A model generated the notes under the pieces. The model was given only the letters and a program-made list of their open reading frames with translations. It ran no database searches and was not told the origin of the DNA. From Actinomycetota bacterium (GTDB lineage Bacteria > Actinomycetota > CALGFH01): a DNA stretch of 64,000 nucleotides. Below are positions 2,153-64,000 of this stretch, piece by piece. The translations under genes were made by a program, and so were the position numbers. The stretch covers positions 10,734 through 74,733 of the forward strand of contig DATLQA010000233.1 of the NCBI GenBank assembly GCA_035535495.1. Reading direction: 5' to 3'. How positions within the stretch are numbered: the stretch's first letter is position 1; each line of letters opens with the position of its first letter.

Positions 2153-3255
2153 CGTCCCGGCTCCGCGGTGTCCAGCCTGGCGGGGGAGAGCGGCAGTCCG
2201 AAGCGGTCCGCCCAGGCGGTGGCGAGCGCCTCGGGCACCCGGTCGAGCGCGCACGCGACCGTCCGCAGGCGCCCCAGGTCGAGCCCGGCAGGGTCCGCGT
2301 CCGCCGCCAGCACCGTCTCGGCCTGCTCGGGCAGCAGGACGGCGACGGCCACCTTCTCGTCCGCCAGCCGCTTCCAGAACGCGCCTGGTTCGAAGCCGGT
2401 GCCGACCACCACACCCGCCCCGGCCACGAACGGCGCCACCAGGCCGCCCACCACGCCGTCGGGCCGGTAGGACGGCACCCCGGCGAGCAGCCGGTCGGAG
2501 TCGTCCAGGGCCAGGTCGCCGGCTGCCTTCCCGGCGGCCGCCAGCAGCTCGCCCTGGCTGCGGGCCGAGCCGCCGGTCAGCAGCGCCTCGCCGTCCAGCC
2601 CGCCGGCCGCGTCGAACAGGTCGCCCATGCTCGGGACGACGCCGGCGAAGTCCAGCGCGGTCGCCGGGTCGGCGCCGGTGCGGCCGAGCAGGCCGCGGCC
2701 GACGGCCACCAGTGCCGGCCGGCCGTGCTCGTGGTGGAGGGCGGCGGCCAGGGCGGCCAGCCGTTCCTCCGCCACGAAGGCGACGGCGCATCCGGCCGCG
2801 CGGAGCGCGTCGGCGCCGCGTCCGGCGGATGCGGCGGGGTCGAGCGGCACCAGGGACACCCCAGCCCGCCAGCAGGCGAAGGAAATCGCCACCGCCCGCC
2901 AGTGGTTGCCTACCAGGACGGCGACGCGCGCGCCCTCGGCGGCGTCAAGCTCCTCGACCAGGAGGTTCGCGATCTTGGCGGTCCAGTTCTCGAACGTCCG
3001 GTATGACAGCTCGACCCGTTCGGCGCGGTCGTCGTCATAGTGCGTGAGGAAGGGCTTGTCGCCGTACCGTCCCGCCTGCCGTTCGATCAGCGCTCCGATG
3101 CCGGTGACCTGGGGGATGCGGGGCCGGCCGGTCGCCGGGGACGCGGCCGCCGGCGGGTCGTCGGGGAGCTCGTCGGCCTGCACGATCGCTGAACACCTAC
3201 CCTGCGCGTACGTGGTCACAAAGGTTTCCGAGGGAGGTTCAGAGGCTATCTCCAC
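2149..3255 (-). CDS. Conserved actinobacterial hypothetical protein with an AMP-binding-like fold, resembling the TIGR03089 family that is usually found next to flippase-like genes.
   Basis: 368-aa ORF with good coding potential. Operon-style 4-bp overlap with the downstream membrane protein gene. Start codon not verified. Confidence 0.55.
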   Translation of the reverse strand: MEIASEPPSETFVTTYAQGRCSAIVQADELPDDPPAAASPATGRPRIPQVTGIGALIERQAGRYGDKPFLTHYDDDRAERVELSYRTFENWTAKIANLLVEELDAAEGARVAVLVGNHWRAVAISFACWRAGVSLVPLDPAASAGRGADALRAAGCAVAFVAEERLAALAAALHHEHGRPALVAVGRGLLGRTGADPATALDFAGVVPSMGDLFDAAGGLDGEALLTGGSARSQGELLAAAGKAAGDLALDDSDRLLAGVPSYRPDGVVGGLVAPFVAGAGVVVGTGFEPGAFWKRLADEKVAVAVLLPEQAETVLAADADPAGLDLGRLRTVACALDRVPEALATAWADRFGLPLSPARLDTAEPGR

Positions 3256-9680: not shown

Positions 9681-10409
9681 ATGATCGACGAGCACGATGC
9701 GGAGCGGGACGGAACGGGGGAGCGGCAGGGGGCGGCCGGGGAGCCGGTGTCCAGCGACACCCCGCCCGCGAGCGAGCTCGTGACCGCTGACGAGCTGGAC
9801 CTGGCGGAGGACGTCGGGCTCGGCGAGGCCGAGCGGGCACTGCTGCGGTGGGCGCTCAGGCAGCGCCAGCGCGCCCCAGGCGAGCCGCTCCTGCCGACCG
9901 GGAACGAGCCGCTCCTGCCGACCGAGGAGCCGACGCCCGACCCGGTGCCGCGGCCGACGCCACCGGCCAGGGCGACACCCACTCCGGCCCCTGAGCCGAG
10001 GCGCGAGGTGGCGCCGATCCCAGCGCCCCGGTCGAAGCCGGTGCGGCTGTGGCCCGAGCCGACCCCCGAGCCGACGGCGGCCCCGGCGCCGGTGCCAAGG
10101 CCCGAGGCGGCTGCCACGAGGGCGGATGACCGGCCCGCCTCTGCGTCGGAGCGGCTCCACAACTCCGCCGAGGAGGCGATCTCCGCCCTGGTCGCCGCGG
10201 GTGGCCCGGACCCACGGGACTACGCGAGCCCGCGCCTGGACCGGCGGGCCAAGATGCTGATCGCGGTCGCGCTGGTGGTGCTGTTGGTGGTCTCGGTCGT
10301 CGGCGGCTTCGTCGGCTACCGCGTGACCCACCGCGCCGCCGGTGCCGGGCCCGAGGCGGTCGGCAGGCCGGCCGGGATCCACGCCGCGCCGGCCAGGCTC
10401 AGCGTGTAG
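9681..10409 (+). CDS. Proline-rich protein with a C-terminal transmembrane anchor (hypothetical)
   Basis: ATG with a GGGAGCAGG Shine-Dalgarno. Pro/Glu-rich region, then a TM helix [22 protein letters not shown]. The upstream part of the 8808..10409 ORF is treated as a GC artefact. Confidence 0.4.
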
Positions 10410-55790: not shown

Positions 55791-56954
55791 CTACTGGTGC
55801 GGCATGAGCCGCCCGCCGTGGCCCGGCCTGCCAGCCGCCCCCGCGCCGGCGAGGTAGGCGTGGTCGGCCTCTGGCGGGACCGGCACGGCGCCGGGCGGGT
55901 GGGGGAGGCGGACCGCGAACACCGAGCCGTCCGGGTCGGTCCGTTCCAGCACCACCTCGGCGCCGATGCTGGCGGCCAGGCGCCGGCACAGGTACAGGCC
56001 GAGGCCGATGCCCCCCGCCTGCCTGGTGCGCGACTGGTCGACCTGGTAGAAGCGCTCGAAGATGCGCTCCCGCGCCTCGAGCGGGATGCCGGGCCCCTGG
56101 TCGGCCACGAGCACGTCGGTCGAGGTCCGGCCCGGCCGGACCCGCACGGTGACGGTGGTGCCCGCCGGGGCGTACTTGCGGGCGTTGCCGACCAGGTTGG
56201 CCAGGATCTGGTGGAGCCGGTCGGCGTCGCTGCGCACCGGTCCCAGCCCGGCGGGCACGTCGGTCTCCATCAGGTGCTGGGTGCCGTCGGCGGCGAGGTC
56301 CTCGAGCACCTGGTCGACCAGGACGTCCAGGCGGACGTCGCTGAGCAGGGGGCGGTCCTCGCCGGACTCGAGCCGCGAGACGACCAGCAGGTCCTCGATC
56401 AGCCGGCGCAGGCGCCGGCTCTGGCGGTCGGCCACCTCGAGCAGCGAGCGGGCCGTGGTCGGGTCGAGTTGGGTGCCGGCCCGCAGCAGCGTCGCCAGGC
56501 TCCCCTGGATCGAGGTGAGCGGGCTGCGCAGCTCGTGGGAGACGGCCGCCACGAAGTCGTCCTTCAGCCGGTTGGACTCGCGCAGCCCCTCCAGCGAGGC
56601 CCGCAGCCGGCTGTTGGTCTGGTTGAGCCGGTCGAACTGCTCGTGGTCGCCGGGCTCGCGTCCCAGCAGCCGGGCGGCGGCCGTCACCGCCACCAGCGGC
56701 ACCAGCAGCAGCAGCGCGGTCGCCGGGGACCACCAGGTGCGCGTGGCGGCGAGCAGGCCGAGGCCGCCGCCTGCCACGACCGCGGCCGCCGACCAGGCCA
56801 CCAGCGCTCCGGCCGTGTGCCCGGGCAGCGACCGCCCGAGCACGGCCAGGACCTGCCCGGCCATGCCGCCGCCGGGCGGCCACGCCTGCCCGCTGCCCGC
56901 CGGTCCCGCTTGCCGCATCCCGCCTCGCTCCTCGGACCCGGAGCCGCCGTCCAC
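55791..56954 (-). CDS. Sensor histidine kinase (two N-terminal TM helices, HisKA, HATPase_c)
   Basis: H-box VAAVSHELRSPLTSI. N-box LANLVGNARKYA. G-boxes DQGPGIP and GGIGLGL. Probable start at an internal ATG (56918 or 56864). Confidence 0.8.
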   Translation of the reverse strand: MDGGSGSEERGGMRQAGPAGSGQAWPPGGGMAGQVLAVLGRSLPGHTAGALVAWSAAAVVAGGGLGLLAATRTWWSPATALLLLVPLVAVTAAARLLGREPGDHEQFDRLNQTNSRLRASLEGLRESNRLKDDFVAAVSHELRSPLTSIQGSLATLLRAGTQLDPTTARSLLEVADRQSRRLRRLIEDLLVVSRLESGEDRPLLSDVRLDVLVDQVLEDLAADGTQHLMETDVPAGLGPVRSDADRLHQILANLVGNARKYAPAGTTVTVRVRPGRTSTDVLVADQGPGIPLEARERIFERFYQVDQSRTRQAGGIGLGLYLCRRLAASIGAEVVLERTDPDGSVFAVRLPHPPGAVPVPPEADHAYLAGAGAAGRPGHGGRLMPHQ

Positions 56955-57115
56955 GGCGGCTCGCTCACGTCCTGATCGGCAGGCTTGGCGCCCGCGTGAT
57001 GGGAACCGCCCTGTTCAGTTGAGCGCCACGCGTGCGTCAGGCAGACTGAGCGGTCAACCCGCAAGCCGAGCCGAACCGGCGTGCCCTCCCGTACGCCGCC
57101 GCCCAAGGAGGATCC

Positions 57116-58369
57116 TTGCCGTACGACGTCGCTGATCTCGCCCTCGCCGACGAGGGCCGGCTGCGCATCGAGTGGGCCGACAGGCACATGCCGGTGCTGC
57201 GCGACATCCGCGCACGCTTCGAGAAGGAGCAGCCCCTCGCCGGCCTCGAGGTGGCCGCCTGCCTGCACGTGACCACCGAGACGGCCAACCTGATGCGCGC
57301 CCTCAAGGCCGGCGGCGCGTCGGTCACCCTCTGCGCCTCCAACCCGCTGTCGACCCAGGACGACACCGCCGCCGCGCTGGTACAGCACTATGGCATCGAC
57401 GTGTTCGCCCGCCGCGGGGTCGACAACGCCGGCTACTACCAGCACCTCGAAGCGGCGCTCGACACCCGTCCCAACGTCACCATGGACGACGGCTGCGACC
57501 TGGTCACCCTGCTGCACACCCGGCGCACCGACCAGCTCGGCCAGGTGCGGGTGGGCACCGAGGAGACCACCACCGGGGTCATCCGGCTGCGCCAGATGGA
57601 GCGCGAGGGCGCCCTGGCCTACCCGATCATCGCGGTCAACGACACCCCCACCAAGCACCTGTTCGACAACCGCTACGGCACCGGCCAGTCGAGCATCGAC
57701 GGGATCCTGCGGGCCACCAACCTCCTGCTCGCCGGGACCACCTTCGTGGTCGCCGGCTACGGCTACTGCGGCAAGGGCCTGGCCATGCGCGCCCGCGGCA
57801 TGGGCGCCAAGGTGGTCGTCACCGAGGTCGAGCCGGTCCGCGCGCTCGAGGCGGCGATGGAGGGCTTCCGGGTGGCGCCGATGCTCTCCGCGGCCCGCGA
57901 GGCCGACCTGATCGTGTCGGTCACCGGCGACCGCGACATCCTCCGGCGCGAGCACTTCGAGGTGATGAAGGACGGCGTGATCCTGGCCAACTCCGGCCAC
58001 TTCGACGTGGAGATCGACAAGGTCGCCCTCCGCGAGCTCGCCACCTCGGTGACGCGGGTCCGCGAGAACGTCGAGGAGTTCGTGATGGACGACGGCCGGC
58101 GCATCAACCTGGTCGCCGAGGGGCGGCTGGTCAACCTCGGCGCCGCCGAGGGCCACCCCGCCGCGGTGATGGACATGTCGTTCGCCGACCAGGCCCTGTC
58201 GCTGGAGTGGCTGACCCGCCAGCAGAGCCTCGACGTCCGCGTCCACGACGTCCCGGCCGAGATCGACGCCGAGGTCGCCAGGGTGAAGCTGGCCACCATG
58301 GCCATCGAGATCGACACGCTCACCCAGGCCCAGGTCGACTACCTGCACTCCTGGACCGAGGGCACCTGA
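57116..58369 (+). CDS. ahcY: Adenosylhomocysteinase (short form, about 417 aa)
   Basis: NAD-binding GYGYCGKG and conserved SAHH blocks throughout. Apparent TTG start with an AAGGAGGA ribosome-binding site. Confidence 0.9.
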
Positions 58370-58391
58370 GCCGCCACGGCACGGCAGCGAG

Positions 58392-58421
58392 GTTGGGGCC
58401 CCGCCGTGGCGGGGCCCCAAC
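58392..58421. terminator. GC-rich hairpin between the convergent ahcY and RDD genes (candidate bidirectional terminator)
   Basis: Arms GTTGGGGCCCCGCC / GGCGGGGCCCCAAC. No T-tract, as is common in high-GC actinobacteria. Confidence 0.4.
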
Positions 58422-58423
58422 CG

Positions 58424-59404
58424 CTATCCGGGTGGGGAGAACCCGCCAGGCTCAACGGCCGGCGGAGGCTCCAGGGCCTCGGCGTCCGGGTCGCCGGTGC
58501 CGGATCGCGGCGGTGCCGGCGGCGGGGCGCCGGGCGCCGGCCCGGCGGGCACCGCGGGCGGGGTGGGCGGCGCCGAGGCGGGCGGAGCGGCAGGCTGCCA
58601 GCCGCTCGGGAGCGGGGGCGCCGGTGCGCCGGCGGCGGCGCGCTGGCGCCGCTGGTAGGCGGCTGCCACGCAGCGCAGGTAGGCCTCGGGCGGGACCCCG
58701 TCGGGCGGCGGCGGGCGGAGCCGCGTGGCCAGCGGCGTGGCGAGCTGCGCGGCCAGTGACGCCCGCGACGCGGGGGCGAACTGCTCGGCGCGGAGCAGGA
58801 AGCTCCGCACCGCCTGGTAGTCCTCGGTGGCCACGCCGGTGACGTCCAGGGTGGCGGTATAGGACTCGAGTCCTGGCGGGGCAGCGAAGCTGACCGGCGC
58901 GGCCAGCTTGGTCGCGCTGCGCTCGCGCAGCACCAGGGTCCCGGCGACCATGTCGCCCAGCCGCTGGTTGTCGCGGCTGAACAGGATGAACACGACCGCG
59001 AAGAAGCCGCTTCCGAGCAGGAAGTCGACGGTGCCGAGCAGGGTGCGGATAGCCGCGTGCCTGAACCGCACCGGCGCCCCCTCGCGGGTCACCACCCGCA
59101 GGCCGAGCGCGGCCTTGCCGAGGGTGCGGCCGCGCCACAGCGTCTCGAAGGCGATGAAGTAGCCGAGCCACCACCCTGGTATCAGCACGAAGAACATGGC
59201 CAGCACCAGCCAGTCCGGCAGCGCGAGGTCGGCCGCGTTGACCAGCAGGGCGACCCCGGTGATGCCCACGAACAGGCCGGCGAGGACCACCGCCATGTCG
59301 ATCAGGAACGCCAGGATCCGCGAGCCGACGTTGGCGGTCTGGAACTCCAGGGCCACCGCCTCGGGGGTGACCATCCTGGTGGAGCCCTGCGCCATCGTCC
59401 GCAT
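58424..59404 (-). CDS. RDD-family membrane protein with a Pro-rich C-terminal tail
   Basis: RDD core with three TM helices (RILAFLIDMAVVLAGLF...). Confidence 0.75.
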   Translation of the reverse strand: MRTMAQGSTRMVTPEAVALEFQTANVGSRILAFLIDMAVVLAGLFVGITGVALLVNAADLALPDWLVLAMFFVLIPGWWLGYFIAFETLWRGRTLGKAALGLRVVTREGAPVRFRHAAIRTLLGTVDFLLGSGFFAVVFILFSRDNQRLGDMVAGTLVLRERSATKLAAPVSFAAPPGLESYTATLDVTGVATEDYQAVRSFLLRAEQFAPASRASLAAQLATPLATRLRPPPPDGVPPEAYLRCVAAAYQRRQRAAAGAPAPPLPSGWQPAAPPASAPPTPPAVPAGPAPGAPPPAPPRSGTGDPDAEALEPPPAVEPGGFSPPG

Positions 59405-59435
59405 TCCCTCCCGAGATGGGCTCTACAATCCGGCG

Positions 59436-60482
59436 GTGGACATCGACCGGTACATCGCCGGCAACACGCCGGCGTGGAACCGCCTGGCGGAGCTGACCAG
59501 CCGGGCCCAGCGCGGGGTCGGCCGGCTGCCAGCCGCCGAGCTGGCCGAGCTGGTCCGGCTCTACCAGCGGGTCGCCGGCCACCTCTCCTACGCCCAAACC
59601 TACTACCGCGATCCGGCCCTCGTCGCCAGGCTGTCCAGCCTGGTCGCGCGGGCGGCGGCGGTGGTCTACGGCACCAGGCCGCGCACCCCGCGGGTGCTCG
59701 GCCGCTTCTTCACCACCACCTTCCCGGCCGCGGTCTGGCACGCGCGCTGGTTCGTGCTCGCCTCCACGCTGCTCTCCCTGATCCCCGCGCTGGTCCTCGG
59801 GATCTGGATCGCCAATTCGACCGCGGCCCTGGAGGCCCTCGGCCCGCCCGCCGTCCGCGAGGCCTACGTCTCTTCCGACTTCGAGTCCTACTACTCCTCG
59901 GCGCCGGCCGCCCAGTTCGCCTCCCAGGTCTTCGCCAACAACGTGCAGGTCGCCTTCCAGGCCTTCGCGCTCGGCATCCTGCTCTGCGTCGGCAGCGCCT
60001 ACGTGCTGGTGACCAACGGCGCCATGCTCGGCCTGGCCGCCGGCCTGTTCGCCGCGGTCGGCCAGCAGCCCAAGTTCTGGGGGCTGATCCTGCCCCACGG
60101 CATGCTGGAGCTGACCGCGGTGTTCGTGGCCGGCGCCTCCGGGCTCCGCCTCGGCTGGACGGTGATCGACCCGGGTGACCGGCCCCGAGGCGAAGCCCTC
60201 GCCGAGGAAGGCCGGCGCGCGGTGGTGATCGTGCTCGGCCTGATCCTCACCTTCTTCGTCGCCGGCACGATCGAGGGGTTCGTCACCGGCCGGCCCTGGC
60301 CGACCGTGCTGCGGGTCGGCATCGGCGCGGTGGCCGAGGCCGCCTTCCTCGGCTACATCTGGGTGCTCGGCCGTGCCGCCGCCCGCCGAGGCCTGACCGG
60401 CGCCCTCGGCGAGGAGGACGAGGGCAGCTGGCTGATCCGCGGTGAGGTTTCTCCCAGCCGGGGCTACCGCTCCGCTACTTGA
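59436..60482 (+). CDS. SpoIIM-like (stage II sporulation protein M family / DUF95) polytopic membrane protein
   Basis: GTG start. A longer ORF would overlap the RDD gene. Family-typical TM pattern. Confidence 0.6.
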   Translation: MDIDRYIAGNTPAWNRLAELTSRAQRGVGRLPAAELAELVRLYQRVAGHLSYAQTYYRDPALVARLSSLVARAAAVVYGTRPRTPRVLGRFFTTTFPAAVWHARWFVLASTLLSLIPALVLGIWIANSTAALEALGPPAVREAYVSSDFESYYSSAPAAQFASQVFANNVQVAFQAFALGILLCVGSAYVLVTNGAMLGLAAGLFAAVGQQPKFWGLILPHGMLELTAVFVAGASGLRLGWTVIDPGDRPRGEALAEEGRRAVVIVLGLILTFFVAGTIEGFVTGRPWPTVLRVGIGAVAEAAFLGYIWVLGRAAARRGLTGALGEEDEGSWLIRGEVSPSRGYRSAT

Positions 60483-60495
60483 GCCCCGGACCCCT
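60461..60495. repeat. 35-bp direct repeat, copy A. It lies immediately 3' of the DUF58 stop and within the last codons of the convergent SpoIIM-like gene.
   Basis: ggggctaccgctccgctacttgagccccggacccc, compared with copy B at 61833-61868 (about 33/36 identical). Confidence 0.6.
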
Positions 60496-61872
60496 AGAGC
60501 CGGCCGGTCGCCTTGACCCGCAGGTAGGCGTCGGCCAGCTCGGGGGCGAGCCGGCCGGGGCCGGCGTCGACCACCACCGCGCCGAGCCCGCGGAGGCGGG
60601 CGACGGTGCGCCGCCGCGCCTCCAGGGTGGCGGTGGCGGCGGCCTTGCGATAGGCGGCGCCGGCCTCCGCCGGGGTCGAGCGCGCCCAGGTGGTGATCTC
60701 AGGGTCGGTCACGCTGGCCACCACCACCAGGTGGCTGCGGGCGATCAGGGGGAGGGCGGGCAGCAGCGTCTCGGTCACCGCCTGCTCGGCCAGCTCGGTG
60801 AAGACCACCAGCATGGCCCGGCGCCGGAACCGGACCAGGGTCTCGGCGAACGCGCCACGATAGTCGCTCTCCACCAGCTTCGGCTCCAACTGGTACATCG
60901 CCTCGGTGACCCGGGAGAGCTGGTCGCGGCTGTGCCCAGGGTTGACCGCCGCCCGCACCTCGCTGTCGAACGCCACCAGCCCGGCCCGGTCGCCCAGCCG
61001 GGTCGCGACCGCGGTGAGCATCATCACCGCGTCCATGGCGTGGTCGAGGCGGGGCACCTCCTCGACCCGCCCGGCCATGGTCCGGCCGGCGTCCAGCAGC
61101 AGCAGCACCGTCTGGTTGCGCTCCGCCCGGTAGGTCCTGACGATCGCCTTGCCGGCGCGGGCGGTGGCCGCCCAGTCCATGCGCCGGAACTCGTCGTCCA
61201 CGCTGTACTCGCGGAGCGAGTCGAACTCGGTGCCGCCGCCGCGCCCCTGCGCCGAGCGGAGCCCGACCTCGAGGATGCGGGCCTTGTTGATGCGCAGCTC
61301 CGCCTCGTCGCGGGACTTGAACGGCGGGTACACGCGGAGGGTGCCAGGCAGCTCGCGGCGGCCCTGGCGGGCCGCCAGGCCGAGCGGGCCCTGGGCCCGC
61401 AGGGTCAGCTCGGTGGGGGTGAAGCGGCCGCGGCGGGTCGGGCGGATCGCGGTCGCCGCCGCCGCCCGGCCGTGGGCGGGGACGACCAGCCGCGCCCGCC
61501 TGGTGGTGGCCGCCAGCGACGGCGCCAGCTCGTCGGCGAGCCGCACGCGCACCGCCCGCCCCGACCGGCGGCCCTGCCGGTTGGCCACCCGCCAGACCAC
61601 CCGGCCCTCGCCGCCGAGCGGGACGATCCCAGGCAGCTCCCGCTCAACCTCGAGATCCTCCGGCTTGGTGGCCAGCAGCCAGTCGGCCACCGCGACGGCC
61701 AGCAGCAGCCCGTCGACCAGCACCAGCCCGAACGGCGGGCGGAGCGGCAGGGTCAGCACCGCCAGCGAGCAGACCGCCGCCAGCACGGCCAGCCGCCAGG
61801 TCGGCACCGGCAGAAGGCCCCTTGTTCCCGGGGGGCTACCGCTTCGCTCCTTGAGCCCCCCGGACCCCCCGC

Positions 61873-61876
<4 letters not shown>
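60494..61876 (-). CDS. DUF58 domain protein (vWA-like; the MoxR-associated partner)
   Basis: DUF58 core (GGTEFDSLREYSVDDEFRRMDW). ATGA overlap with the upstream MoxR gene. Confidence 0.8.
61833..61868. repeat. 35-bp direct repeat, copy B. It lies within codons 3-15 of DUF58, immediately 3' of the MoxR stop.
   Basis: ggggctaccgcttcgctccttgagcccccggacccc. Confidence 0.6.
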
Positions 61877-62809
<933 letters not shown>

Positions 62810-62820
<11 letters not shown>

Positions 62821-63907
62821 TGGTGACCTCCCGGCGGACGGCGTCGACGGTGTGGGCGAGCGCGACGAGCTCGGCCTCGTCGCGCGGGGTGGCCGGTGCG
62901 AGCGCGGCCAGCGCGCGCTCGACCGGGATGCCGGTGCGGGCCGCGGCCGCCTCGGCCACCCGCTGGGGTGGGGTGGCGGCGGGCAGGCCGAGGCGCTCGG
63001 CCAGGACGCGGCGCAGGTCGTCGGCGAGCAGGCCGGCTGCCTGGTCGCGGCCGCGGGCCCGCTGCAGCAGGTTGCCGACGGCCACCACCAGCTCGGAGCC
63101 TTCGAGCTGGACGGGCTGCGGCTCGCGCACCGGACGGCCGAGGCGGCGCGCCCGCCACATGGCGAGCACCACGAACGCGACCACCAGTTGCCAGCCGAAC
63201 AGCTTGACCCGGGGGGCGATCAGGTCGGTGAGGCCGCGCGCGCCGCCGCCTGGTGGCGGCGGCCGCAGCACCACCACCCGCGTGCCCGCCGACGGCGCCA
63301 GCAGGCTGGCGGCCAGCACCGCGTTGTCGGCCTTGCCGAGTTCGCGGTTGACCAGCGCGCTGGCCCCGCCGAGACGGACCAGGGTGCCGCCACCGAGCGG
63401 CTGGGCGACCAGCCAGGAGCCCTCGCCCCGGCTGAAGCAGCCCTGGCTGCCCGGCGGCGGCTCGAACAGCACGCCACCCGGGGCCGACACCCGCCCCACG
63501 TCGCGCAGGGCGGGCAGGTCGCAGCGGCGCTGCAACTGGACGTCGACCAGCCCGAAGGTGGCGGTGCCGGCCGTGTCGAGGTCGGACACCGAGGAGCTCG
63601 GGTCGGCCACCACCAGGGTGCCGCCCTGGCGCACCCAGCCGAGCAGCACCTCCCGATCAGGGGTTTCGAGGGCGTCGACCAGCAGCAGGGCGGTCCCGTC
63701 CGTTCCTGGCGGTGGCGCCTGGCCGACGGAGACGTCGGCGCCCAGCTCCCGCAAGACCTCGACCAGGGCCTTGGTGCCGAGCGGGCCGGGGGAGTCAGGG
63801 TCGAGCGGGGCGCCCTCCCCGGGCTGCCGCCCGCCGATCAGCGCGGCCGCCACCAGCCCGGCGGCCACCAGCAGCCAGGGCAGCACCCGCCGCAACCGCC
63901 CGCTCAC
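62810..63907 (-). CDS. DUF4350-like protein (upstream partner in the MoxR operon) with an N-terminal membrane anchor
   Basis: Operon position upstream of MoxR. N-terminal TM helix. GTGA overlap with the next upstream gene. Confidence 0.6.
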
Positions 63908-64000
63908 GCCGGCACCCTGGTCAGGACCTGGTCGGACAGCGTCCGCAGGCGGGCGGCGTCGTCCGGGCCTGTTGGCCAGCGCGCGTACCAGGCAAGCTCG
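63904..64000 (-). CDS. Partial CDS (3' end) of the next upstream MoxR-operon gene. It continues beyond the window.
   Basis: Open frame on the minus strand whose stop overlaps the GTG start of the DUF4350-like gene. Confidence 0.3.
   Translation of the reverse strand, partial: ELAWYARWPTGPDDAARLRTLSDQVLTRVPA

Follow-up and report, generated by a model that had tools for sequence, protein, structure and literature searches.

The 64,000-nt stretch of contig DATLQA010000233.1 from an Actinomycetota bacterium analysed here (hereafter the window, meaning the whole 64-kb stretch; GC content ~74%) contains a gene for a DUF58 protein that is bracketed by a short direct repeat, which we found to be a hairpin-forming element with many relatives in other genomes. 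The DUF58 gene follows a MoxR-type AAA+ ATPase gene on the minus strand and converges with a SpoIIM-like gene on the plus strand (Table 1). The sequence-only reading had placed one repeat copy right after the DUF58 ATG and the other at its TAG stop, there encoding the residues SRGYRSAT on the opposite strand, and this placement was confirmed. The 28-nt cores of the two copies, termed copy A (at the DUF58 stop) and copy B (at the DUF58 start), were identical at 26 of 28 positions in an ungapped alignment. They were the only two matches with up to three mismatches in the 64-kb window, and the same search in 100 dinucleotide-preserving shuffles generated zero matches; nhmmer with the family profile described below also hit copies A and B only. 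With flanks included, 39-44 nt of the two copies could be aligned, with two substitutions and three 2-nt indels. Two of the three indels extend both stem arms symmetrically (CCGGGGCT/AGCCCCGG in copy A vs CCGGGGGGCT/AGCCCCCCGG in copy B), and this stem, 2 bp longer on both arms in copy B, was the first hint that the repeat is a structured element rather than a duplication scar.

The predicted window hairpins are 32-36 nt long, and the folding energy of the copy B hairpin is -24.9 to -29.3 kcal/mol. Copy B starts 6 nt past the DUF58 ATG (61876) on the minus strand and encodes DUF58 residues 3-20 (GGSGGLKERSGSPPGTRG), and the MoxR TGA stop (61875-61873) lies 9 nt ahead of its hairpin. At the other end of the gene, the DUF58 stop lies 4 nt ahead of the copy A hairpin, the G-run of copy A beginning with the G of that TAG stop (60496-60494). 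Read on the plus strand, copy A encodes SRGYRSAT and the TGA stop (60480-60482) of the SpoIIM-like gene; that is, the stop codon lies within the hairpin, and the last eight residues plus TGA are the antisense strand of the element.

Table 1. Coordinates of the repeat copies and the genes around them in the window
Feature	Position	Strand	Description
SpoIIM-like gene	59436..60482	+	Pfam PF01944; likely start GTG 59436 (VDIDRY...)
30-nt segment	60441..60470	+	Present in the window, missing from the truncated L065/L002 copies; CCGC microhomology at its bounds
Copy A	60458..60494	-	Hairpin 60458-60489 (8-bp stem CCGGGGCU/AGCCCCGG) plus 5′ G-run
Copy A, 28-nt core	60460-60487	+	GGGGCTACCGCTCCGCTACTTGAGCCCC
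DUF58 gene, 460 aa	60494..61876	-	Pfam PF01882; ATG overlaps the MoxR stop as ATGA
Copy B, full inserted unit, 54 nt	61817..61870	-	GGGGGGTCCGG-GGGGCTCAAGGAGCGAAGCGGTAGCCCC-CCGG-GAACAAGGGGC; in frame in the DUF58 N-terminal extension
Copy B hairpin	61828..61863	-	10-bp stem CCGGGGGGCU/AGCCCCCCGG around the 16-nt conserved apical sequence
Copy B, 28-nt core	61832-61859	+	GGGGCTACCGCTTCGCTCCTTGAGCCCC
MoxR-type AAA+ ATPase gene	61873..62820	-	Pfam AAA_3, AAA_lid_2

Junctions of the DUF58 gene in related genomes

The order MoxR-DUF58-SpoIIM was kept in 8 of 8 orthologous loci, with or without the repeats, and DUF58 was never missing. By DUF58 DNA identity, these loci form the tree ((window, L065 at 94.4%), ((L001, L067), L002=L066, L068), L003). 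At the MoxR/DUF58 junction, the window carries an intact element and its sister L065 an empty site (GTGACC/CTCCTGCCGGTG), from which the window differs by exactly 54 extra nt (18 codons), a clean insert. L001 also carries an intact copy there, with flanks different from those in the window; its sister L067 has no copy, L068 has a degenerate remnant (GCAGCCAAGCGGTAGCGCCCC), and L002, L066, and L003 have no copy. At the DUF58/SpoIIM junction, the copy is intact in the window, reduced to its 5′ half with the same CCGC end point in L065 and L002/L066, and absent from L001, while L067 and L068 carry other sequence. Because the copy states vary independently across the loci, the two junctions have separate histories. 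An invariant arrangement of both repeats among relatives had been named beforehand as the outcome that would point to coincidental sequence constraint; the orthologous loci instead vary structurally at both junctions. Of the past duplication or insertion/excision event proposed by the sequence-only reading, the insertion part thus holds, while nothing in the loci compared points to excision, circularisation, or duplication of DUF58.

As both junctions lack intergenic space, each insert has become part of a reading frame. In the ancestral arrangement, the start of DUF58 and the stop of MoxR overlap (as GTGA in relatives and ATGA in the window), and the 54-nt insert leaves the DUF58 frame open (M-S-[GGSGGLKERSGSPPGTRG]-LLPVPTW). 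Across 120 homologues, the conserved part of DUF58 begins with (L)PVPTWRL and is preceded by an unconserved N-terminal extension of 0 to ~30 aa, which is dispensable because some homologues start at MPVPTW or VPTW. A candidate alternative start is GTG 61807-61805, with AAGGGG 9 nt upstream. Copy B would therefore either add 18 in-frame codons to a poorly conserved N-terminal tail or shift the start to GTG 61807. In the orthologue alignment, conservation of the SpoIIM-like protein ends at ...EGSWL(I/A)R, and the tail beyond differs in every lineage; in the window, ...EGSWLIR is followed by GEVSP from the adjacent flank and then by the residues from copy A, which would have replaced the end of this open reading frame (ORF) and supplied its stop codon. 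The SpoIIM-like C-terminus, the conservation of which had been suggested as a check, thus comes from a repeat copy and is not conserved. Both this tail and the N-terminus of DUF58 are hypervariable and therefore tolerate inserts.

The minus-strand genes around the repeats are DUF4350, MoxR, and DUF58, and the convergent SpoIIM-like gene, ending at 60482, is followed by an RDD-family gene. The wider neighbourhood is conserved (window 56000-64000; L003:1-21320) and consists of DUF7847/DUF4129/DUF4350/MoxR/DUF58, convergent SpoIIM and RDD genes, and then adenosylhomocysteinase; in L003 (1-21320) it adjoins a response regulator, histidine kinase, and LpqB trio, a typical actinobacterial synteny. 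Soil metagenomes are rich in DUF58 homologues at 75-95% identity. Several further features were observed at these loci. L066, 99.8% identical to L002, is without the stretch encoding the first DUF58 transmembrane segment (~2925-3000), apparently through a deletion between two CTGGCGGCT repeats, and its DUF58 is called from an internal GTG (384 aa); this gap could be a real deletion or an assembly artefact. The DUF58 3′ flank in L067 (1900-1983) and L068 (1786-2030) carries at least two copies of a purine-rich repeat (GAGGAGCGACG[A/C]AGG) that is not the hairpin element and may represent another small repeat family. The more distant relative L003 has a 118-nt GC-rich spacer between MoxR and DUF58 (9883-10000) with the direct repeat GGCCAGGCCCGGCGGCG occurring twice and an in-frame TAG just ahead of the MPVPTW start. 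Inside MoxR, on the opposite strand, a weak Guanidine-III riboswitch match (window 62698-62756, +; 19.4 bits vs a cut-off of 36, E = 0.83) is almost certainly due to chance.

A dispersed hairpin family with a nearly invariant apex

A scan of 185,579 species genomes of bacteria and archaea (one per species) with the 28-nt core pattern GGGGCTCNAGNAGCNNAGCGGTAGCCCC identified 59 loci, of which 58 are in metagenome-assembled genomes (MAGs) of uncultured Actinomycetota/Actinomycetes and one is in a MAG labelled Rhizobium (L021). These loci contain 79 exact copies, corresponding to 47 independent sites once orthologous sites are merged. At least 14 exact-pattern copies were found in one MAG and several in others; these counts are lower bounds because an exact 24-base match was needed and the MAGs are fragmentary. 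Copies also occur as head-to-tail arrays of two to four with a period of 31-46 nt. Within a genome, copies share a 5′ G-run, GGGG(GG)TCC(GG), and a 3′ CCGG followed by a purine-rich tail (e.g. TCAACAAGGGAC), and flanks past ~55 nt are unrelated between sites. Most copies lie between called genes, with both window copies and some phage copies overlapping ORF ends. Among de-duplicated co-directional actinobacterial sites, 23 are sense and 5 antisense to their neighbours.

The first 43 nt of copy B are identical (43/43) to copies at unrelated loci in other genomes (L007, L015, L044, L051, L058, and L183), and the copy A hairpin has an identical counterpart in metagenome contig L207. Since other genomes contain, for each of the two, copies that are identical to it or closer than its partner, A and B are not duplicates of each other. 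A local duplication of one copy from the other was thus rejected, as was the suggestion that the SpoIIM C-terminus was recruited from the DUF58 5′ end.

The family shares a 20-nt core, CTCAAGNAGCGAAGCGGTAG, with the nearly invariant form CTC[A/G]AG[C/T/G]AGCG[A/G]AGCGGTAG. A whole unit of ~35-55 nt consists of a variable stem, the 20-nt core, the complementary arm, and a purine- or A-rich tail, with the 5′ G-run GGGG(GG)TCC in the actinobacterial lineage. In the actinobacterial set, the stem extensions covary (CCGG/CCGG, CC/GG, GCG/CGC, TCG/CGA, and CGCCU/AGGCG in one array), and 32 of 79 copies have at least three extra Watson-Crick pairs beyond the 28-nt core, compared with ~5 expected. Covariation was also assessed in a broad set of 150 distinct copies picked on the 20-nt core alone. 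The three flanking base pairs are paired in 96-99% of these copies, with 15, 81, and 64 double-sided changes, and 88% of cells are paired overall, compared with 75.7% in shuffles (0 of 500 reach this value) and 26-60% in slid controls. The A content is 36-64% at positions +4 to +12 past the core, which start right behind the 3-bp stem arm, against a background of ~18%. With this A-rich tail included, the unit measures ~35-36 nt, the same as the common tandem period.

The variable core positions are 4 (A/G), 7 (C/U/G), and 12 (A/G/C). With moderate formal support, we propose an inner fold with C1-G20 and U2-A19 pairs, a CAA bulge, G6.U18, Y7-G17, an A8.G16 mismatch, G9-C15, C10-G14, and a GNA triloop, in which the three variable positions would fall in the bulge, the Y-G pair, and the middle of the triloop, respectively. 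A few compensatory inner changes (G6.U18 to A-U or G-C, G9-C15 to A-U, U7.G17 to U-A) are consistent with this model, and the inner helix shows 16 double-sided cells where 8.2 are expected (reached in 0 of 500 shuffles); at pair 7-17, 23 of 92 cells are unpaired. The G.U wobble pairs are formed or tolerated on the sense strand only.

At about ten actinobacterial MAG loci, one to four tandem copies of the element were observed in the P3 loop of a thiamine pyrophosphate (TPP) riboswitch (L028:5042-5192; also L006, L011, L017, L026, L029, L039, L045, L052, L053, L210, and L254). A TPP riboswitch with a 46-nt insert scored 42.1 bits against RF00059, for which the gathering cut-off is 54.3; standard annotation misses these riboswitches because the insert lowers the Rfam score below that cut-off.

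Occurrence in Alphaproteobacteria, rRNA operons, and viral contigs

BLAST against plasmids detected this apical sequence in Alphaproteobacteria as well, where the stems differ in sequence but compensate. Plasmid NZ_CP094831.1 of Acuticoccus sp. (L070:2713-3060) contains six tandem 60-bp units (GUGCUCGAGCAGCGAAGCGGUAGCAC), each with the motif and the stem GUGCU/AGCAC; the array sits in a coding sequence annotated as a hypothetical protein; this coding sequence is probably not a true gene. In an Asticcacaulis excentricus plasmid, two copies (L071:1405 and 1519) lie between a parB/repB-like gene and the replication initiator gene (repA), the second in sense orientation ~50 nt upstream of the initiator start, and a further A. 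excentricus plasmid copy (L298:2504) directly follows the initiator gene. RNAs that control plasmid copy number are often located in the region near the initiator gene. Further plasmid carriers belong to Cereibacter, Rhodovulum, Phaeobacter, and Pseudosulfitobacter.

In Rhodobacterales rRNA operons, copies are located ~70 nt before 16S, ~40 nt after 16S, and between tRNA-Ala and 23S, and also inside the 23S rRNA gene at ~1270-1320 (sense) and ~150 (antisense), which we take to be the classical helix-45 and helix-9 sites of intervening sequences (IVS). Like the riboswitch copies, these are located at tips of structured RNAs. Sites in plasmid-borne rRNA operons of this order are L295:1334 and 2504; L296:928, 2504, and 4507; and L297:386, 846, and 2504.

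The core-only pattern CTCNAGNAGCGAAGCGGTAG hit 104 stretches in IMG/VR viral contigs and at least 120 in metagenome contigs. Its neighbours in the viral contigs are lambda-type terminase and portal genes and P2-type tail tube genes, and in some contigs the portal C-terminus is an in-frame read-through of the element (...DTASSSEAVGDET...). Such a lambda-family portal ORF, with C-terminal read-through ...PDDTASSSEAVGDETPGDGA, was seen in L090 (1257-2801), L075, L094, L098, L113, and L154, and a similar SSSEAVG read-through at other ORF ends in L089 and L137. BLAST against the cultured phage genomes of INPHARED generated no convincing match. In the broad set, sense and antisense copies number 142:85 relative to downstream gene starts and 88:45 relative to upstream gene ends. 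Many copies lie within 10 nt after a stop codon and end 4-30 nt before a start codon.

Among ~290 loci, no common neighbour protein family (transposase, HUH enzyme, integrase) was found, the largest real cluster comprising 17 loci; the neighbour clusters consisted either of phage proteins (terminase, portal, tail tube) or of spurious ORFs translating the motif. Inverted neighbour pairs numbered 16 among the ~290 loci and were irregularly spaced. The ORFs between them, one identified as phage tail tube by Pfam and the others judged by eye, were not transposase-like, in an inspection that did not include a genome-wide search for REP-associated tyrosine transposases (RAYTs; REP, repetitive extragenic palindrome). 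Rfam 15 generated no match at the element in window 59000-64000 with E up to 1 and none at the element at gathering score in the whole window, and no family matched the element in seven proteobacterial or metagenomic carrier loci. Queries of the searchable literature with either strand of the sequence, written as DNA or as RNA, returned only two unrelated primer matches, and the REP surveys consulted do not include it.

Origin of the copies and possible roles of the element

Taking the polymorphic junctions and the relatives of each copy into account, we consider it probable that the repeats flanking DUF58 arose by two independent insertions of a dispersed, REP-type hairpin element that is small and non-autonomous. 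One copy would have landed at the MoxR/DUF58 junction and another at the DUF58/SpoIIM junction, and the element would have been copied by an enzyme acting in trans. Judging from its orientation relative to genes, from the restriction of G.U pairs to the sense strand, and from the copies in a riboswitch loop, in rRNA spacers, and inside 23S rRNA, it would be transcribed within mRNAs, mostly in sense, and would act as a stable stem-loop that blocks 3′-5′ exonucleases or serves as a processing site. A hairpin within ~10 nt of a stop codon would also impede terminating ribosomes, as E. coli REPs do. REPs stabilise upstream mRNA and stall ribosomes when located within 15 nt of the stop codon (PMC5082802, PMC3733652), and effects of both kinds, on mRNA stability and on ribosomes at this distance, are established for E. 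coli REPs (PMC5082802).

The element resembles the REPs and bacterial interspersed mosaic elements (BIMEs) of Enterobacteria and Pseudomonas, which are associated with RAYTs, in being a short imperfect palindrome that recurs in a genome (at least 14 copies in one MAG), mostly between genes and sometimes clustered, in being transcribed with neighbour genes, as predicted here, and in its compensatory stem changes; it also contains GTAG. Its size falls within the 20-40 nt of an imperfect palindrome forming a REP stem-loop, and most copies are extragenic. REPs typically number more than 100 per genome. They carry an unpaired GTAG or CGTC tag at one end of the palindrome (PMC3733652). In the element, by contrast, GTAG is internal, at the boundary of loop and 3′ arm rather than an unpaired 5′ tag, and at the base of the conserved core the AG of this motif is paired with CU. 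With a conserved apical 20 nt and a free stem, the element is the opposite of typical REPs, and its copies are single or in head-to-tail tandem, whereas BIMEs and REPINs (REP doublets forming hairpins) consist of regularly spaced inverted pairs in alternating orientation.

Other known repeats share single features with the element. Rickettsia palindromic elements (RPEs) are likewise palindromic and lie in frame inside protein genes that remain functional (PMC3733652), a parallel to the 18 codons inserted into DUF58, the SpoIIM tail, and the portal C-terminus of phages; they differ in being ~100-150 bp long, confined to Rickettsia, and unrelated in sequence. The 23S IVS of Alphaproteobacteria are comparable through the Rhodobacterales copies inside 23S near 1270-1320 and ~150, but IVS are defined by rRNA position and excision, while the element is dispersed, with copies in mRNAs, a riboswitch loop, plasmids, and phages as well. 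Br-REP1 and Br-REP2 of Bradyrhizobium are alphaproteobacterial intergenic stem-loop repeats in transcribed 3′ untranslated regions (UTRs), with copy numbers that vary strongly among relatives (PMC5082802). Their sequence is different (CCGGAATCTCGAGATTCCGG), and they are perfect palindromes restricted to one genus group (PMC5082802).

Some candidate identities were tried and rejected. The gaps between cores (3-18 nt, largely identical within an array) do not fit a CRISPR (clustered regularly interspaced short palindromic repeats) array, and the clean 54-nt insertion without duplicated flanks (window vs L065) does not fit a miniature inverted-repeat transposable element. The array spacers in L012, L032, L035, and L050 look like tandem duplications of unit plus spacer, not target-site duplications. 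Kink-turn, tRNA D-arm, boxA/boxB, and anticodon-mimic readings of the core were dismissed for lack of fit, judged by eye.

Several observations weigh against the insertion of a REP-type element. No target-site duplication accompanies the 54-nt insertion in the comparison of the filled window site with the empty L065 site, and no transposase or other mobilising enzyme was found among the neighbours of the element. The near-invariance of the core across phyla is unusual for REPs, the consensus sequences of which have low similarity between genomes and are usually lineage-specific (PMC12306157). The truncation point common to L065 and L002 at the DUF58/SpoIIM junction conflicts with the gene tree under a single deletion, and would require parallel microhomology deletion, recombination, or gene-conversion repair. 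At the other junction, the intact 5′ copies of the window and of L001 both leave an open DUF58 frame, in the same phase, which could reflect one old insertion followed by losses instead of two gains. The window hairpins are no stabler than dinucleotide shuffles (z -0.8 to +0.5), which makes folding energy uninformative as evidence in a sequence with 75% GC, and the roles proposed at the RNA level are drawn by analogy with REPs.

The sequence-only reading had offered the direct repeats as recombination sites or scars that make DUF58 an excisable, insertable, or duplicable cassette. Their direct orientation exactly at both ends of one ORF fits this proposal, and direct repeats of 28-40 nt could in principle permit rare deletion. 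We nevertheless judge it highly improbable: the gene order, with DUF58 in place, persists in all eight loci whatever the repeat state, including those with one copy or none; copies A and B fall into different subfamilies, each nearer to copies from other genomes than to its partner; each junction changed on its own; the element is found singly at dozens of unrelated sites; and no recombinase gene was detected next to the locus among the window ORFs by Pfam. Barely credible is the view that the similarity reflects coding constraint, with similar peptides needed at both places, or that both copies are ordinary intrinsic terminators, despite the overlap of both with ORFs and the position of copy A at the 3′ ends of two convergent genes. 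The copies are read on opposite strands in different frames (GGLKERSGSP vs SRGYRSAT), and both peptide segments are absent or different in orthologues. An intrinsic (Rho-independent) terminator was rejected for both window copies, as no U-tract follows the hairpin on either strand and the 3′ tail of the family is A- or purine-rich; copy B, moreover, lies between two co-transcribed, translationally coupled genes.

A different emphasis would see in the element chiefly a functional cis-acting RNA module, not a selfish repeat, that controls processing, stability, or translation from positions in 5′ UTRs, intercistronic and pre-rRNA spacers, and phage operons, with its sequence-specific apex read by a conserved trans-acting factor (such as a ribonuclease, RNA-binding protein, or ribosome) and its spread secondary. 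This overlaps with the insertion of a REP-type element, since it concerns the role of the element and not the origin of the DUF58 copies, and we regard it as possible, if rather doubtful. In its favour, Actinomycetota, Alphaproteobacteria, and viral contigs share a nearly invariant 20-nt core combined with freely changing stems, positions 4, 7, and 12 vary where the proposed fold would allow (bulge, Y-G pair, middle of the GNA triloop), and the inner helix shows compensation (16 double-sided cells vs 8.2). The sense-biased orientation, the many copies ending 4-30 nt ahead of a start codon, the A-rich tail at +4 to +12, and the defined positions in Rhodobacterales rRNA operons point the same way. 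On the other hand, presence differs at one junction between 94%-identical relatives, tandem copy number ranges from 1 to 4 at the same riboswitch loop, and inserts occur in ORF ends, including the phage portal C-terminus. The downstream genes are unrelated (largest neighbour cluster 17 of ~290 loci), about one third of copies are antisense to neighbours, no Rfam family matches, and the inner helix is weakly supported, with 23 of 92 cells unpaired at pair 7-17.

For the DUF58 locus itself, the insertion of a REP-type element removes a tempting but wrong reading, in that DUF58 is not a mobile cassette. The odd DUF58 N-terminus and SpoIIM-like C-terminus are by-products of repeat insertion, which matters for the annotation of starts and stops. 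For the family, the combination of an almost invariant 20-nt apex with free stems is unusual, as dispersed hairpin repeats are usually lineage-specific with conserved stems, and the element is common to soil Actinomycetota, cultured Alphaproteobacteria (rRNA operons and plasmids), and many viral contigs. It is a speculative idea, and on present evidence an unlikely one, that the element is a putative cross-phylum mobile RNA module of ~26 nt, with a free stem of at least 3 bp, the core CUCAAGYAGCGAAGCGGUAG, and an A-rich tail, read by a conserved cellular or phage factor and altering the processing or translation of neighbour genes, including MoxR-DUF58. Such a factor, for example a processing ribonuclease, would recognise the core sequence-specifically, and copies would seed at tolerated places: the helix tips of rRNAs and riboswitches, intercistronic spacers, and ORF ends. 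If a conserved factor does read the core, the element would provide a portable handle on the processing or stability of RNAs.

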